A DNA stretch of 64,000 nt. Source: Escherichia phage ZCEC14. The stretch is from the sequence record OP168898.1; one strand, given 5' to 3'. Both the position numbers and the translations under genes were made by a program. This document shows positions 4,863-53,000 of the stretch, in pieces. Position 1 is the stretch's first letter, and every line of letters starts with the position of its first letter. The notes beneath the pieces were generated by a model. That model saw only the letters and a list, made by a program, of their open reading frames with translations, had not been told where the DNA came from and made no database searches.

Positions 4863-4892
4863 GTTTACTTTTCCTCTTGACTGTGGTATAAT
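4863..4892 (+). promoter_or_regulatory. T4-type early promoter upstream of regB
   Basis: GTTTAC 4863-4868, extended -10 TGGTATAAT ending 4892. Confidence 0.7.
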
Positions 4893-4919: not shown

Positions 4920-5381
4920 ATGACTATCAACACAGAAGTTTTTATCCGTCGAAATAAGCTCCGTCGTCACTTTGAGTCGGAGTTTCGTCAAATTAACAAT
5001 GAGATTCGTGAGGCATCAAAAGCAGCAGGAGTCTCATCGTTTCATCTAAAATATTCTCAGCATCTTCTTGACCGCGCAATTCAACGGGAGATTGATGAGA
5101 CATACGTTTTTGAATTATTCCATAAAATAAAAGACCATGTTTTAGAAGTTAATGAATTCCTAAGTATGCCTCCGCGTCCTGACATTGACGAGGATTTTAT
5201 TGATGGGGTTGAATATCGTCCTGGACGTTTAGAAATCACAGATGGAAATCTTTGGCTTGGATTTACAGTTTGTAAACCTAACGAGAAGTTCAAAGACCCG
5301 TCACTTCAATGTAGGATGGCAATTATCAACAGTCGTCGTTTACCAGGAAAGGCTTCTAAAGCAGTAATTAAAACTCAATGA
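4920..5381 (+). CDS. regB: RegB site-specific endoribonuclease
   Basis: 153 aa; MTINTEVFIRRNKLRRHFESEFRQINNEIREASK... matches T4 RegB. Confidence 0.9.
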   Translation: MTINTEVFIRRNKLRRHFESEFRQINNEIREASKAAGVSSFHLKYSQHLLDRAIQREIDETYVFELFHKIKDHVLEVNEFLSMPPRPDIDEDFIDGVEYRPGRLEITDGNLWLGFTVCKPNEKFKDPSLQCRMAIINSRRLPGKASKAVIKTQ

Positions 5382-5388
5382 GGTAAGC

Positions 5389-5934
5389 ATGAGAAAAGCA
5401 CTACTCGCTGGTCTATTGGCCATTTCAATGATGGCACATAGCTCCGAGCATACTTTCAGTAATGTCCAACTCGATAACATGCGTTACGCGTATCAATTCG
5501 GGGAACAATTTTCTAAGGATGGAAAATATAAAACACATAAAAATATCCACAAGAGCGGATTAGGTCATATAATGGCTGCTATTTTATGGCAAGAAAGCTC
5601 TGGCGGAGTTAATTTAAAATCTAAACCAAAGCATCACGCCTACGGAATGTTCCAAAATTATTTGCCTACTATGCGAGCAAGAGTTAAGGAACTTGGTTAT
5701 AATATGACCGATGCTGAAATAAAAAGAATGTTGAATAAACGATCCAATTCAGCTTCCTGGGCGTACATTGAACTTTCTTATTGGTTAAATATACATAAGG
5801 GCGATATAAGAAAAGCAATATCCTCTTATAATTCGGGATGGAATGTTAAAGCAGGTTCTAAATATGCTTCTGAAGTCCTAGAAAAGGCTAATTACCTTAA
5901 AAATAATAAACTTTTGGAAATAGTAAATGACTAA
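5389..5934 (+). CDS. secreted lytic-transglycosylase-like protein
   Basis: 181 aa; N-terminal signal peptide; QESSGG...GMFQ resembles SLT catalytic motif. Confidence 0.5.
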   Translation: MRKALLAGLLAISMMAHSSEHTFSNVQLDNMRYAYQFGEQFSKDGKYKTHKNIHKSGLGHIMAAILWQESSGGVNLKSKPKHHAYGMFQNYLPTMRARVKELGYNMTDAEIKRMLNKRSNSASWAYIELSYWLNIHKGDIRKAISSYNSGWNVKAGSKYASEVLEKANYLKNNKLLEIVND

Positions 5935-6274
5935 AATTTTGGTTTTATGTATAGGATTAATTTCATTTTCTGCTTCTGCGTCAGCAGATACATCATATAC
6001 TGAAATTAGAGAATATGTAAACCGCACTGCGGCAGATTATTGTGGGAAAAATAAAGCATGCCAAGCTGAATTTGCACAGAAATTAATATATGCATATAAA
6101 GACGGAGAAAGAGATAAATCAAGCAGATACAAAAACGATACATTATTAAAACGATATGCTAAAAAGTGGAATACTTTAGAATGTTCAGTTGCGGAGGAGA
6201 AAGATAAAGCCGCTTGTCATTCAATGGTTGACCGTTTGGTAGATTCTTATAATCGAGGATTGAGTACTAGATGA
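5927..6274 (+). CDS. small secreted protein, position and size of T4 vs
   Basis: 115 aa; signal peptide MTKILVLCIGLISFSASASA; synteny only. Confidence 0.45.
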   Translation: MTKILVLCIGLISFSASASADTSYTEIREYVNRTAADYCGKNKACQAEFAQKLIYAYKDGERDKSSRYKNDTLLKRYAKKWNTLECSVAEEKDKAACHSMVDRLVDSYNRGLSTR

Positions 6275-6738
6275 TTGTAAAATATATCAAGGGCGATATT
6301 GTCGCCCTTTTCGCTGAAGGTAAAAATATTGCGCATGGATGCAATTGTTTTCATACTATGGGTTCAGGCGTAGCGGGTCAATTAACCAAAGCTTTCCCTA
6401 AAATTTTGGAAGCTGATAAATTACAGACTGAATGGGGTGATGTAACTAAACTCGGTTCTTACTCAGTCTATGAAAAATACTTTAGGACTCATAAAGCGTA
6501 TTGCTTCAACCTTTATACTCAATTTCAACCAGGGCCAAATTTTGAGTATTCCGCTTTAATGAATTGTATGTTAGAATTAAATGAGTTTGGTGAAAATAAA
6601 CTGATTAAACCTACAATCTATATGCCTAGGATTGGTGCAGGCATAGGTAAAGGGAACTGGGATATTATTGAGGGGATTTTAGATACGTATTCCTCTAAAT
6701 TAGAAATTGTGATTGTTGATTGGGAACCGTTATTATGA
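6271..6738 (+). CDS. macro-domain-like protein (putative ADP-ribose binding/hydrolase)
   Basis: 155 aa; KGDIVALFAEGKNIAHGCNCFHTMGSGVAGQL resembles macro-domain GDIT...NAAN...GGGV signature. Confidence 0.45.
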   Translation: MIVKYIKGDIVALFAEGKNIAHGCNCFHTMGSGVAGQLTKAFPKILEADKLQTEWGDVTKLGSYSVYEKYFRTHKAYCFNLYTQFQPGPNFEYSALMNCMLELNEFGENKLIKPTIYMPRIGAGIGKGNWDIIEGILDTYSSKLEIVIVDWEPLL

Positions 6739-6947
6739 ATATACATTATCCACATCCATATGACCCAAAGAATAAGGCAGTAATTATTCGTCAATGGGAA
6801 CGCATTTGTCGTACTAAATGTCCAATTAATAGTCCACATGATGTAGATAAAGATTACATTGGAACATTCGTTGAATATACCTTTATTGATAAGAAAGGTC
6901 GTAAACAGCACGTAGAAGAATACTGCTTAAAGGTGACATGGTTATGA
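6735..6947 (+). CDS. hypothetical small protein
   Basis: 70 aa from ATG 6735 (ATGA overlap). Confidence 0.45.
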   Translation: MNIHYPHPYDPKNKAVIIRQWERICRTKCPINSPHDVDKDYIGTFVEYTFIDKKGRKQHVEEYCLKVTWL

Positions 6948-7150
6948 GTCAAACTAGTATTCTTAAAAATGCCCACTGTGAAAAGTGTAAATGGCCGGTT
7001 GTTTTTGCTTTATGCAACGATGAAATGGCTTGTGATTTCGATTATTGGTGCTATTGTTCTAATAAAGGATGCATCAATCATAAAGGTGAAGGATTTTATT
7101 CGGGATTTTATCCTTATCCAGAATTCGTTAAAGAAGGTAAACCGAAATGA
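6938..7150 (+). CDS. hypothetical Cys-rich small protein
   Basis: 70 aa; CEKCKW...CNDEMACDFDYWCYC...GC. Confidence 0.45.
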   Translation: MVMSQTSILKNAHCEKCKWPVVFALCNDEMACDFDYWCYCSNKGCINHKGEGFYSGFYPYPEFVKEGKPK

Positions 7151-7320
7151 ATAGTTCTGAGCTACAATATGAAGTGTCACGTGAACTTGATAATTTAATT
7201 GAACTCGCTGCTAATAAAGGTTTTGCCATTGGAATTGGTCAAAAAGATACTGATCATTTAACTATGGAAATATTTAAGCAAAAGCGAATTATTTTAAAAC
7301 TTCTGGAAATTAATATATGA
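7147..7320 (+). CDS. hypothetical small protein (not in ORF track)
   Basis: 57 aa; ATG 7147 overlaps upstream stop, own stop overlaps next ATG. Confidence 0.4.
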   Translation: MNSSELQYEVSRELDNLIELAANKGFAIGIGQKDTDHLTMEIFKQKRIILKLLEINI

Positions 7321-7688: not shown

Positions 7689-8270
7689 ATGGCGAGTTTA
7701 ATTTTTACTTATGCAGCAATGAATGCTGGAAAATCTGCTTCTCTTTTGACTGCTGCACATAATTATAAAGAACGCGGAATGAGTGTATTAGTTCTTAAGC
7801 CTGCTATTGATACTCGCGACTCTGTCTGTGAAGTCGTTTCTCGCATTGGAATTAAGCAGGAAGCGAATATTATCACAGATGATATGGATATTTTCGAGTT
7901 CTATAAATGGGCTGAAGCACAAAAAGATATTCATTGTGTATTTGTAGATGAAGCTCAGTTTTTAAAAACTGAACAGGTGCATCAATTAAGCCGAATTGTT
8001 GATACATATAATGTTCCTGTTATGGCTTATGGATTAAGGACTGATTTCGCTGGAAAATTATTTGAAGGTTCTAAAGAACTTTTAGCGATTGCAGATAAAC
8101 TTATTGAACTAAAAGCAGTTTGTCATTGCGGTAAAAAAGCGATTATGACAGCTCGATTAATGGAAGATGGAACACCAGTTAAAGAAGGTAATCAAATCTG
8201 TATTGGTGATGAAATTTATGTTTCTTTGTGTAGAAAACATTGGAATGAATTAACTAAAAAGCTCGGTTAG
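7689..8270 (+). CDS. tk: thymidine kinase
   Basis: 193 aa; P-loop AAMNAGKSASLL, C-terminal CHCGKKA zinc motif. Confidence 0.95.
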   Translation: MASLIFTYAAMNAGKSASLLTAAHNYKERGMSVLVLKPAIDTRDSVCEVVSRIGIKQEANIITDDMDIFEFYKWAEAQKDIHCVFVDEAQFLKTEQVHQLSRIVDTYNVPVMAYGLRTDFAGKLFEGSKELLAIADKLIELKAVCHCGKKAIMTARLMEDGTPVKEGNQICIGDEIYVSLCRKHWNELTKKLG

Positions 8271-46610: not shown

Positions 46611-46904
46611 ATGAAAAAATTTATCTTTGCTACAATTTTTGCTTTAGCTTCTTGCGCTGCTCAGCCTGCTATGGCAGGTTATGATAAAGATTTGTGCGAA
46701 TGGTCTATGACTGCGGATCAGACTGAGGTTGAAACCCAAATTGAAGCAGATATTATGAATATCGTTGAGCGTGATCGTCCTGAAATGAAAGATGAAGTAC
46801 AAAAACAACTTAAGTCTGGCGGTGTAATGCAGTATAATTATGTTCTGTATTGCGATAAAAACTTTAATAATAAAAATATCATCGCTGAAGTGGTAGGTGA
46901 ATAA
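46611..46904 (+). CDS. sp: periplasmic spackle protein Sp
   Basis: 97 aa; signal peptide MKKFIFATIFALASCAAQPAMA; size and position of T4 sp. Confidence 0.6.
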   Translation: MKKFIFATIFALASCAAQPAMAGYDKDLCEWSMTADQTEVETQIEADIMNIVERDRPEMKDEVQKQLKSGGVMQYNYVLYCDKNFNNKNIIAEVVGE

Positions 46905-46916
46905 TTAGAGGTTGAT

Positions 46917-47273
46917 ATGTATAGTTCTGAATTTTCATATTTAAAAATGGAAAAAATTTCATACGATTTTATAGATGAAAAGGTTTATTACAGTTTCCAT
47001 GAACCACGTTTTAATAGTGAGGTTGGGTTTATTGTAGTAAAAGACAATTTCATTTTAAAAATATATTCGGCATTAAAGGATTTTCACTACGAAAATATTA
47101 ACCTAAAATTTAATAAAGAAAACGTTCGTAATTGCGCAGTAACAATTACAGGAAATAAAGGTACATGTGTTATGCTATCTGATGAAATTAATGATTTGCT
47201 AAATGATGCAGAAAATATTACTGCACCATCTATTGATGACCAAATTTTTAACGCTTTTATGAATAGAGGTTAA
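46917..47273 (+). CDS. hypothetical protein
   Basis: 118 aa. Confidence 0.45.
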   Translation: MYSSEFSYLKMEKISYDFIDEKVYYSFHEPRFNSEVGFIVVKDNFILKIYSALKDFHYENINLKFNKENVRNCAVTITGNKGTCVMLSDEINDLLNDAENITAPSIDDQIFNAFMNRG

Positions 47274-51777: not shown

Positions 51778-52401
51778 ATGATTATTAATCTTGTAGATGT
51801 TGAACAGTTATCTATAAAAGCTGAAAGTGTTGATTTTCAATATGATATGTATAAAAAGGTCTGTGAAAAATTTACTGACTTTGAACAGTCAATTCTTTGG
51901 CAATGTATGGAAGCCAAAAAGAATGAAGCTCTTCATCAGCAGTTGAATAAAATCATTAAAAAGCATTTAACTAAATCACCTTATCAGCTATATCGTGGTA
52001 TATCAAAATCGACAAAAGAACTCATTAAAGATTTACAAGTCGGAGAAGTGTTTTCAACGAACAGGGTAGATTCATTTACTACTAGTTTGCATACAGCGTG
52101 TTCTTTTTCTTATGCCGAATATTTCACTGACACAATACTTCGCTTAAAAACTGATAAAGCTTTTAATTACTCTGACCATATCAGCGATATTATACTTTCT
52201 TCTCCTAATACTGAGTTTAAGTACACGTATGAAGATACTGATGGATTAGATTCAGAACGTACTGATAACTTAATGATGATTGTACGTGAACAAGAATGGA
52301 TGATTCCAATTGGAAAGTATAGAATAACTTCTATTTCAAAAGAAAAATTACACGATTCATTTGGAACATTTAAAGTTTATGATATTGAGGTAGTTGAATG
52401 A
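51778..52401 (+). CDS. modB: Mod-family ADP-ribosyltransferase (ModB-like by length and order)
   Basis: 207 aa; R-S-E signature: LYRGIS, TTS, EQEWMIP. Confidence 0.65.
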   Translation: MIINLVDVEQLSIKAESVDFQYDMYKKVCEKFTDFEQSILWQCMEAKKNEALHQQLNKIIKKHLTKSPYQLYRGISKSTKELIKDLQVGEVFSTNRVDSFTTSLHTACSFSYAEYFTDTILRLKTDKAFNYSDHISDIILSSPNTEFKYTYEDTDGLDSERTDNLMMIVREQEWMIPIGKYRITSISKEKLHDSFGTFKVYDIEVVE

Positions 52402-53000
52402 AATACTCAGTAATGCAATTAAAAGATTTTAAAATCAAATCAATGGATGCATCGGTGCGTGCTTCTATTCGTGAGGAATTGCTTTCTGAAGGGTTTAATT
52501 TATCTGAAATTGAACTTTTAATTCATTGTATTACCAACAAACCAGATGACCATACTTGGTTAAATGAAATAATCAAATCTCGTTTGGTTCCAAACGATAA
52601 ACCTCTTTGGAGAGGTGTTCCAGCTGAGACTAAACAAGTATTAAATCAAGGAATTGATATTATTACATTTGATAAAGTCGTATCAGCTTCATATGATAAA
52701 AATATAGCTCTACATTTTGCTTCCGGTTTAGAATATAACACACAAGTTATTTTTGAATTCAAAGCTCCTATGGTATTCAATTTCCAGGAGTATGCTATAA
52801 AAGCTCTACGCTGTAAAGAATACAATCCAAACTTTAAGTTTCCGGATAGTCATCGTTATCGTAATATGGAATTAGTTTCAGATGAACAAGAAGTAATGAT
52901 ACCAGCTGGAAGTGTATTTAGAATTGCGGATAGATATGAGTATAAAAAGTATTCAACATACACTATCTATACTCTTGATTTTGAAGGATTTAATCTATAA
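52398..53000 (+). CDS. modA: Mod-family ADP-ribosyltransferase (ModA-like by length and order)
   Basis: 200 aa; R-S-E signature: LWRGVP, SASY, EQEVMIP. Confidence 0.65.
   Translation: MKYSVMQLKDFKIKSMDASVRASIREELLSEGFNLSEIELLIHCITNKPDDHTWLNEIIKSRLVPNDKPLWRGVPAETKQVLNQGIDIITFDKVVSASYDKNIALHFASGLEYNTQVIFEFKAPMVFNFQEYAIKALRCKEYNPNFKFPDSHRYRNMELVSDEQEVMIPAGSVFRIADRYEYKKYSTYTIYTLDFEGFNL

Follow-up and report, generated by a model that had tools for sequence, protein, structure and literature searches.

Several proteins that act against DarT toxins have been described, and the closest to the gene treated here is tk.4 of phage T4. When a T4 transposon library was grown on DarTG2-expressing E. coli (HIDEN-SEQ), tk.4 was the single significant hit, and a clean tk.4 knockout made T4 sensitive to DarTG2 (bioRxiv 10.1101/2025.11.20.689424). 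The gene was renamed adfM, for anti-DarT factor Macrodomain, and a structural similarity of its product to M. tuberculosis DarG was noted; of enzymatic removal of ADP-ribose from DNA the authors of this November 2025 preprint, which is not peer reviewed, say that it 'seems likely', and no more (bioRxiv 10.1101/2025.11.20.689424). In the literature we found no biochemical assay or enzymatic activity of the T4 Tk.4 protein. An A1pp (macro) match of tk.4 orthologues in CDD had been published in 2006 (PMC1524935). The macrodomain of Tk.4 and its role against DarTG2 are already known, the domain from 2006 and the function from 2025.

Two other phage enzymes and two bacterial ones frame the comparison. 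T4 AdfN (gp30.3) is a NADAR enzyme that removes the guanine adducts made by DarT1 (PMC11825919). A macrodomain of phage PhiKZ, gp104, also named AdfM, takes ADP-ribose off DarT2-modified DNA in vitro (PMC13309987). DarG is inactivated by K80A, and SCO6735 has Gln85 at the position of that Lys; SCO6735 removes ADP-ribose linked to thymidine on DNA and gives protection from DarT, and its activity is abolished by Q85A and by Q85E (PMC9967889, PMC9411070). The mechanism proposed for SCO6735 starts from a water that the Val25 backbone positions, with Gln85 keeping the distal ribose in place (PMC9967889, PMC9411070), and a longer mobile loop with Lys89 is the proposed cause of its high DNA activity and processivity (PMC9411070). 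The inactive variants SCO6735 Q85A, DarG K80A and TARG1 K84A nevertheless inhibit DarT in vitro, SCO6735 most strongly (PMC9411070).

We analysed a 64,000-nucleotide stretch of DNA from Escherichia phage ZCEC14 (OP168898.1), referred to as the window. An initial annotation, made from the sequence, had pointed to a 155-aa ORF at 6271-6738 with a macro-domain-like peptide; both ORF and peptide are exactly as it described. Among the functions it listed was the countering of DarT, and the published genetics back this option: tk.4 is the sole hit on the DarTG2 host and its knockout is sensitised. Our reading, to which we give a probability of roughly three in four, is that Tk.4/AdfM is an early macrodomain that shields replicating phage DNA from DarTG2 by Gln-assisted hydrolysis of thymine-ADP-ribose.

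Identity of the ORF: tk.4 of a T4-type phage

The ORF has an ATG start and encodes 155 aa at 6271..6738 on the + strand, according to both the ORF list of the window and the raw sequence. It lies inside a tightly packed same-strand operon that runs from regB through vs.1, vs, tk.4 and tk.3 on to tk, with the following features:

4864..4892, + strand: promoter-like site (TTTACT, 17 nt, TATAAT, with TG) upstream of regB, from a consensus scan
4920-5381, + strand: regB
5389-5934, + strand: vs.1, with an SLT transglycosylase domain
5927-6274, + strand: vs, PHROG 'valyl tRNA synthetase modifier'
6271..6274, + strand: ATGA, overlap of the vs stop and the tk.4 start, read directly from the sequence
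6271..6738, + strand: tk.4 / adfM CDS, stand-alone macrodomain protein of 155 aa
6735..6738, + strand: ATGA, overlap of the tk.4 stop and the tk.3 start, read directly; a 4-nt overlap in the T4 annotation
downstream of tk.4, + strand: tk.3 (DUF7202), after which come two small ORFs and then tk.2 and tk.1
7689-8270, + strand: thymidine kinase (tk)

This block is the regB-to-tk region of T4, read in the direction of early transcription; a zinc-binding ORF is also among the neighbours of tk.4. The encoded protein is identical to T4 Tk.4 at 155 of 155 residues (100%; AAD42667.1). At the DNA level the two genes differ at seven sites, and all seven differences are synonymous, which shows that tk.4 is under purifying selection. 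The initial annotation had proposed looking for the gene in T4, T2 and T6, and all three carry it (protein identity 100%, 100% and 99%, respectively); the RB69 orthologue is 84% identical. Synteny is alike in T4, T2, T6 and RB69, where tk.4 sits between vs and tk.3 or tk.2. ZCEC14 differs from T4 by two additional small ORFs between tk.3 and tk.2, and T2 and T6 have them likewise. With an identical protein and the same vs-tk.4-tk.3 order, the ORF is orthologous to the gene of T4 AdfM, and we identify it as tk.4 (adfM) in a phage of the T4 type.

The arrangement also bears on expression. The ATGA shared by vs and tk.4 suggests that translation of the two may be coupled. The promoter-like site at 4864..4892, at a place where a promoter is annotated in phage DalCa, is probably the early promoter of a regB-vs.1-vs-tk.4 transcript. 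A consensus scan of the + strand from this site downstream as far as tk gave no terminator-like site, and around tk.4 the + strand has no match to the MotA box; with neither match nearby, we rejected tk.4 as a separate transcription unit. Early expression of tk.4 is thus plausible from the sequence. A hairpin at 6289-6309 was dismissed as a significant RNA structure, since shuffled sequences fold just as well as its 81-nt context (z = -1.0).

Tk.4 groups with TARG1/ALC1-like macrodomains

The profile search and the structure comparison that the initial annotation had proposed both point to a macrodomain. In Pfam, residues 22-132 of Tk.4 match positions 2-113 of the 118 in Macro (PF01661) at 27.7 bits, above the gathering score of 22 (E-value 2.9e-6), and PHROG 335, labelled 'phosphatase', matches at 1.3e-65. 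The PADLOC DarG model is matched at 1.3e-9 in its macro part only (model positions 2-145 of 329). NCBIfam antitoxin_DarG gives 30.3 bits against a cutoff of 250, a low score because only the N-terminal 146 model positions are matched (2-146 of 338). Against PDB sequences, phmmer found BT1257 (1.3e-9) and yeast Poa1p (2.8e-6) and also SCO6735, DarG and TARG1; when a profile of 80 relatives was used, the E-values of the macrodomains improved to between 2.7e-18 and 2.4e-11. An AlphaFold2 model computed from the alignment of the same relatives (pLDDT 95.2, pTM 0.91) has a three-layer alpha/beta/alpha fold with a central mixed sheet. Its closest structures by Foldseek are TARG1 (2e-10), Poa1p (1.6e-9), BT1257 and DarG macrodomains (E-values from 2e-10 to 1e-7). 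Taken together, the profile, PDB-sequence and Foldseek matches indicate that Tk.4 is a stand-alone macrodomain of the TARG1/ALC1-like clade. The macro-domain likeness proposed initially is therefore real (PF01661 above its gathering score, PHROG 335, PDB matches down to 1.3e-9), and the caveat attached to it, that it depended on a short motif, is superseded now that profile, fold and literature evidence agree.

Database names hint at a different activity. In many GenBank records the gene is a 'macro domain protein', 'Poa1p-like' or an 'ADP-ribose binding module protein', and the PHROG 335 label, the CDD A1pp match on record since 2006 and the place of Poa1p among the top neighbours in both sequence and fold, with an HxCNC motif in common, could all be taken to mean that Tk.4 is a small-molecule phosphatase (Poa1p-like, acting on ADP-ribose-1''-phosphate) or an O-acetyl-ADP-ribose deacetylase that clears NAD-derived metabolites during infection or RNA repair. 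The homologue on one T4-like metagenomic contig, which adjoins RNA ligase 1 and is near Pnk, would fit the RNA-repair version. The labels, though, are homology transfers, and the sole recorded phenotype of the phage gene is DarTG2-specific. No 2'-phosphate remains after T4 Pnk/Rnl1 repair, which therefore yields neither Appr>p nor Appr1p as a substrate. We consider this explanation very unlikely as the main role; such side activities are common in macrodomains and compatible with another main role, and Appr1p phosphatase or OAADPr deacetylase activity in Tk.4 would be a side activity at most.

A conserved ADP-ribose pocket with a Gln-type active site

We aligned Tk.4 and its relatives (120 + 141 sequences, n=262 with Tk.4) to the profile and compared them with characterised macrodomains. 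The M. tuberculosis DarG sequence used is identical to the 5M3I chain, that of T. aquaticus was taken from the same search, and that of SCO6735 was recovered via a Streptomyces-phage homologue; the TARG1 sequence agrees with the PDB chains in the profile-to-PDB alignment. The candidate pocket and active-site residues are encoded as follows:

6295..6297, + strand: codon of D9 (KGD motif), aligned with TARG1 D20; D or N in 259 of 262 members
6334..6345, + strand: codons of H22-G23-C24-N25 (H-x-x-N motif), corresponding to SCO6735 H24/V25/N27 and Poa1p H23/N26
6355..6375, + strand: codons of T29-A35 (TMGSGVA), putative phosphate-binding loop 1 with a GxG motif, aligned with TARG1 RMGAGIA and DarG VMGKGIA
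6520..6522, + strand: codon CAA of Q84, at the site of the catalytic Lys of TARG1 (K84), DarG (K80) and PhiKZ AdfM; corresponds to SCO6735 Q85
6625..6648, + strand: codons of P119-G126 (PRIGAGIG), putative substrate/diphosphate-binding loop 2, from the alignments; G126 replaces TARG1 D125

D9, T29-A35 and P119-G126 match segments of TARG1, DarG and SCO6735 by alignment and are conserved throughout the family, in which G33, A35, P119, I121, G122 and G124 are invariant. We take TARG1 D20, the counterpart of D9, to be the Asp that contacts adenine in the TARG1-ADP-ribose complex. These alignments show that a predicted ADP-ribose pocket is present and conserved in Tk.4.

At the site of the catalytic Lys, which in TARG1 and DarG follows strand beta-5, the family is uniform: position 84 is Q in all 261 residues aligned there and never Lys. 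N25, D49 and Y82 are each found in 261 of the 262 members and H22 in 249, while the position of TARG1 D125, the Asp by which the lysyl intermediate is resolved, is G126 in Tk.4 and holds A or G across the family. The register is the same in two alignments. MAFFT places DarG K80 (FPTKKHW) and TARG1 K84 (LITKKRA) over Tk.4 Q84 (NLYTQFQ), and the profile-to-PDB alignment sets nlYtQf against yLITKk of TARG1 and nMIGQh of BT1257. H22, G23, N25 and Q84 of Tk.4 correspond to H24, V25, N27 and Q85 of SCO6735, with the same residues in BT1257. In the phmmer alignment, H22, N25 and T29 also align with residues of Poa1p, which has an HxCNC motif and a Ser ahead of the GxG loop; for Poa1p we use what we take to be native numbering (H23/N26), and the importance of H23 and S30 is suggested only by the names of mutant PDB entries. 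Tk.4 and its relatives do not have the insertion of five to six residues that follows the Gln in SCO6735, BT1257 and gp135 of Streptomyces phage Wakanda, and neither SCO6735 (with Tyr and Ile instead) nor DarG or TARG1 has an equivalent of the invariant D49 and Y82 of the family. We show here, at the level of alignment, that the putative active site is of the Gln type rather than DarG-like and that Tk.4 has no Lys-type catalytic residue; H22, N25 and Q84 may have roles like those of the matching SCO6735 residues.

The missing Lys also fits a rival mechanism. Tk.4 might neutralise DarT2 chiefly through binding to the toxin itself, or by covering the ssDNA that the toxin targets, with the pocket as a docking surface and without hydrolysis of the adduct as the main activity. 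The dead variants SCO6735 Q85A, DarG K80A and TARG1 K84A inhibit DarT in vitro (PMC9411070), and the phage anti-DarT factors AdfB of ICP1 and AdfA of RB69 are thought to bind directly. Two observations argue the other way. Across 262 diverged relatives from many phage groups, the whole ADP-ribose pocket is invariant, as is the H/N/Q triad; this would be expected of an enzyme whose substrate is a universal adduct rather than of a protein that binds a single fast-evolving toxin. Moreover, the C-terminal DarT-binding domain of DarG is absent from the 155-aa Tk.4 (30 bits against the cutoff of 250). We therefore regard toxin binding as an unlikely main mode of action.

Tk.4 relatives are spread more widely than ModB

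By tblastn, relatives of Tk.4 occur in 2,846 of 50,697 phage records. Their carriers extend beyond T4-like phages to 85-180-kb genomes of phages of Escherichia, Salmonella, Pseudomonas, Vibrio, Acinetobacter and Aeromonas. A profile search of 1.84 billion representatives returned 1,205 clusters (50% identity) at E<=1e-30 and 9,072 at E<=1e-10, and nearly all of the best 150 of 18,296 profile matches are stand-alone proteins of 145-190 aa. Two homologues from nominal 'bacterial MAGs' lie on T4-like phage contigs with Rnl1, Pnk, a Dda-like helicase and dCMP deaminase; on neither of these two metagenomic contigs is there a DarT near the homologue. The homologues that we inspected are phage-borne.

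The initial annotation had set the macrodomain beside ADP-ribosyltransferases at 51778-53000. These enzymes are real, matching PHROG 832 (RNA polymerase ADP-ribosylase):

51778-52401: ModB, 96.6% identical to T4 ModB
52398-53000: ModA, 99% identical to T4 ModA

Proteins like ModB are found in 1,071 phage records, almost all of T4-like enterobacterial phages, and Pseudomonas, Vibrio, Acinetobacter and Aeromonas are not among the ten commonest names for the ModB matches. One record of a ModB homologue is named NAD:arginine ADP-ribosyltransferase.

With both enzymes in the same window, Tk.4 could be imagined to erase or read the phage's own Alt, ModA and ModB marks on host proteins, or the RNAylation made by ModB, for tuning or recycling. 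Macrodomains are generic ADP-ribose erasers and readers, and ones specific for arginine do exist, for example Legionella MavL (cited in PMC13036486). However, the genes lie ~45 kb apart, show no linkage and are not co-distributed, with 2,846 phage records for Tk.4-like proteins against 1,071 for ModB-like ones. Since the ModB-like transferases are limited to these records, mainly of T4-like enterobacterial phages, the macrodomain is not tied to the Mod enzymes. The linkage differs as well. The residue that Alt and Mod enzymes modify is arginine; the nearest characterised relatives of Tk.4 act on thymine/uracil-linked and Asp/Glu-linked ADP-ribose (PMC9967889, PMC9411070, PMC13036486). The suggested link to ModA and ModB thus finds no support, and a role on the phage's own marks seems highly improbable.

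Proposed mechanism of protection from DarTG2

Hydrolysis of the DarT2 adduct, the reading that we prefer, would proceed as follows. DarT2 modifies N3 of thymidine with ADP-ribose in TNTC motifs (TCT/TTT in E. coli) of ssDNA, and replication is blocked. Tk.4, presumably produced early within the regB-vs.1-vs-tk.4 transcript and translationally coupled, would bind the ADP-ribose on thymidine of phage ssDNA through its two glycine-rich loops and Asp9. It would then hydrolyse the N-glycosidic bond between thymine and ribose, which would restore normal DNA and let replication continue in DarTG2 hosts. The chemistry would resemble that of SCO6735 and probably not that of DarG, with the Gln positioning the distal ribose and an activated water as the attacking group.

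That the T4 protein enzymatically removes ADP-ribose from dT is something we infer by analogy. Hydrolysis is favoured because H22, N25 and Q84 align with residues of SCO6735, which cleaves dT-ADPr on DNA, and because PhiKZ AdfM strips ADP-ribose from DarT2-modified DNA. It is weakened by the fact that Tk.4 has neither the Lys essential in DarG and TARG1 nor the loop of SCO6735 and carries invariant residues, D49 and Y82, that those three proteins lack, and the inhibition of DarT by inactive SCO6735 Q85A leaves room for protection through direct toxin binding.

The same features permit a broader proposal, which we put forward tentatively and consider rather doubtful: the Tk.4 family may represent a third mechanism by which ADP-ribose is erased from nucleic acids, of the Gln type, without the DNA-binding loop of SCO6735 and with an Asp49 and a Tyr82 of its own, whose substrates possibly reach beyond DarT2 adducts, for example to uracil-ADP-ribose in RNA or to adducts of undescribed defences. 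If this were true, the wider substrate range would explain why the gene is retained in thousands of phages whose hosts mostly do not have DarTG2.

Implications

Because gene, domain and phenotype have already been published, our findings add no new biology. New here are only the Gln-for-Lys site common to Tk.4 and SCO6735 and the separate lineages of the T4 and PhiKZ AdfM proteins. The first matters for the design of a catalytically dead control of T4 AdfM, which should change Q84 or N25 and not a lysine. The second calls for caution when annotations are transferred between two "AdfM" families that share one name and are unrelated in lineage. More broadly, anti-defence genes account for a large part of the "dark matter" left unannotated in model phages and are predictive of host range, and T-even phages would have two separate erasers of DNA ADP-ribosylation: AdfN (NADAR) for DarT1 guanine adducts and AdfM/Tk.4 (macrodomain) for DarT2 thymine adducts.

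Comparison with known macrodomains

PhiKZ gp104 AdfM (Cell Rep 2026, PMC13309987) is likewise a stand-alone phage macrodomain that counters DarT2, under the same name, and it enters the phage nucleus by import (PMC13309987). It keeps the DarG-type lysine in FPTK (FPTKDNW), where Tk.4 has LYTQ. With 18% identity, a BLASTP E-value of 0.005 over 23 residues and a Lys-type site, it was rejected as a member of the Tk.4 family; on sequence, T4 AdfM and PhiKZ AdfM are different macrodomain lineages. ICP1 AdfB was also rejected as a relative of Tk.4, being a 77-aa DarT binder with no macrodomain.

Human TARG1/OARD1 and yeast Poa1p share two loops with Tk.4, GxG and PRIGxG, along with the KGD motif and the His at position 22. 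They differ in that TARG1 K84 and D125 are replaced by Q84 and G126 in Tk.4, and Poa1p has a Ser at the position of Q84 (phmmer alignment) and a large insertion. Physiological substrates are a further difference.

The DarG macrodomain (T. aquaticus 5M31/5M3E, M. tuberculosis 5M3I) is ~20% identical to Tk.4, in which DarG K80 is replaced by Gln. Tk.4 has 155 aa against ~340 and is without the C-terminal DarT-binding domain, and tk.4 does not adjoin a darT gene, its neighbours being regB, vs.1, vs, tk.3 and the zinc-binding ORF. An "orphan DarG" in the strict sense was thus rejected, as Tk.4 lacks both the catalytic Lys and the C-terminal domain, its gene has no darT beside it, and the best 150 of the 18,296 profile matches are nearly all stand-alone proteins.

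SCO6735 of Streptomyces coelicolor (PDB 5E3B) and BT1257 of Bacteroides (2FG1/2AFC) are Gln-type TARG1-like proteins with only 21-29% identity to Tk.4, which is viral rather than chromosomal and lacks their Lys89-bearing loop, longer by five to six residues. In its biology, then, Tk.4 is DarG-like; by its residues it is chemically nearest to the Gln-type SCO6735 enzymes, and it forms a subfamily of its own.

Gene content around tk.4 and a diverged gp61.2

The macrodomain gene tk.4 lies within a block of plus-strand genes running from regB to tk. Between tk.3 and tk.2, the interval 6938-7320 of the window is occupied by two small ORFs, neither of which is found in T4:

6938-7150, plus strand, small ORF of 70 aa with Pfam domain PF23895, a phage zinc-binding domain
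7147-7320, plus strand, small ORF of 57 aa

Both T2 and T6 carry ORFs of similar size at the same place. Because these two ORFs lack a T4 counterpart and resemble the arrangement in T2 and T6, the window derives from a relative of T4 rather than from T4 itself.

A gene related to counter-defence lies elsewhere in the window:

46863-47270, homologue of T4 gp61.2 (known from RB69 as AdfA, an anti-DarT1 factor)

The encoded protein shares only ~32% identity with its T4 equivalent over 142 aa, and the nearby dmd is 100% identical to that of T4. gp61.2 is a known counter-defence gene, and the window carries a strongly diverged allele.

Immediately before tk.4 is vs:

5927-6274, plus strand, vs, annotated as 'valyl-tRNA synthetase modifier'

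The N-terminus of Vs, MTKILVLCIGLISFSASASA, reads like a signal peptide, and an exported location would sit oddly with the annotated cytoplasmic function. The protein encoded by its upstream neighbour, vs.1, is likewise hydrophobic at the N-terminus and contains an SLT transglycosylase domain. In minimal medium, vs is reported to be the most depleted gene in the HIDEN-SEQ preprint on T4 (bioRxiv 10.1101/2025.11.20.689424).

A hairpin within tk.4 and middle-promoter-like matches

The tk.4 coding sequence itself contains a perfect hairpin, 18 nt into the gene, which covers the codons for KGDIVALF and has a short run of U residues after it:

6289-6309, 9-bp hairpin, AAGGGCGAU-AUU-GUCGCCCUU

The corresponding hairpin in phage DalCa is annotated as a rho-independent terminator, and a terminator consensus scan of the window detected the hairpin on the minus strand. 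The 81-nt stretch around it folded no better than shuffled sequences (z = -1.0).

We also scanned the window for sites that resemble middle promoters with a MotA box, using the pattern TGCTTNA, 11-13 nt, TANNNT. There were 15 matches compared to 4.7 expected, a number reached by none of 100 shuffles; ten of the 15 lie on the plus strand between 22.5 and 48.7 kb (22558-48704).

Comparison of Tk.4 with its relatives and other macrodomains

On a T4-like metagenomic contig (L008 344-3739), the Tk.4 homologue has other neighbours than in T-even phages, where the gene lies in the vs/tk block: RNA ligase 1 is encoded two genes upstream, a Dda-like helicase directly downstream, and Pnk ~2.5 kb away.

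Tk.4 of phage T6 (L005 7135-7599) differs from those of T4 and T2 only by G31K and S32A, both within the phosphate-binding loop TMGSG. Lys is also present at position 31 in 9 of the 262 members of the Tk.4 family. Two further positions are nearly invariant in the profile alignment of this family:

6415-6417, plus strand, D49 codon of tk.4 (Asp in 261/262)
6514-6516, plus strand, Y82 codon of tk.4 (Tyr in 261/262)

In contrast, the macrodomains of SCO6735 (Streptomyces), BT1257 (Bacteroides), the antitoxin DarG and human TARG1 have Tyr at the Asp49 position, and Ile or Pro at that of Tyr82.
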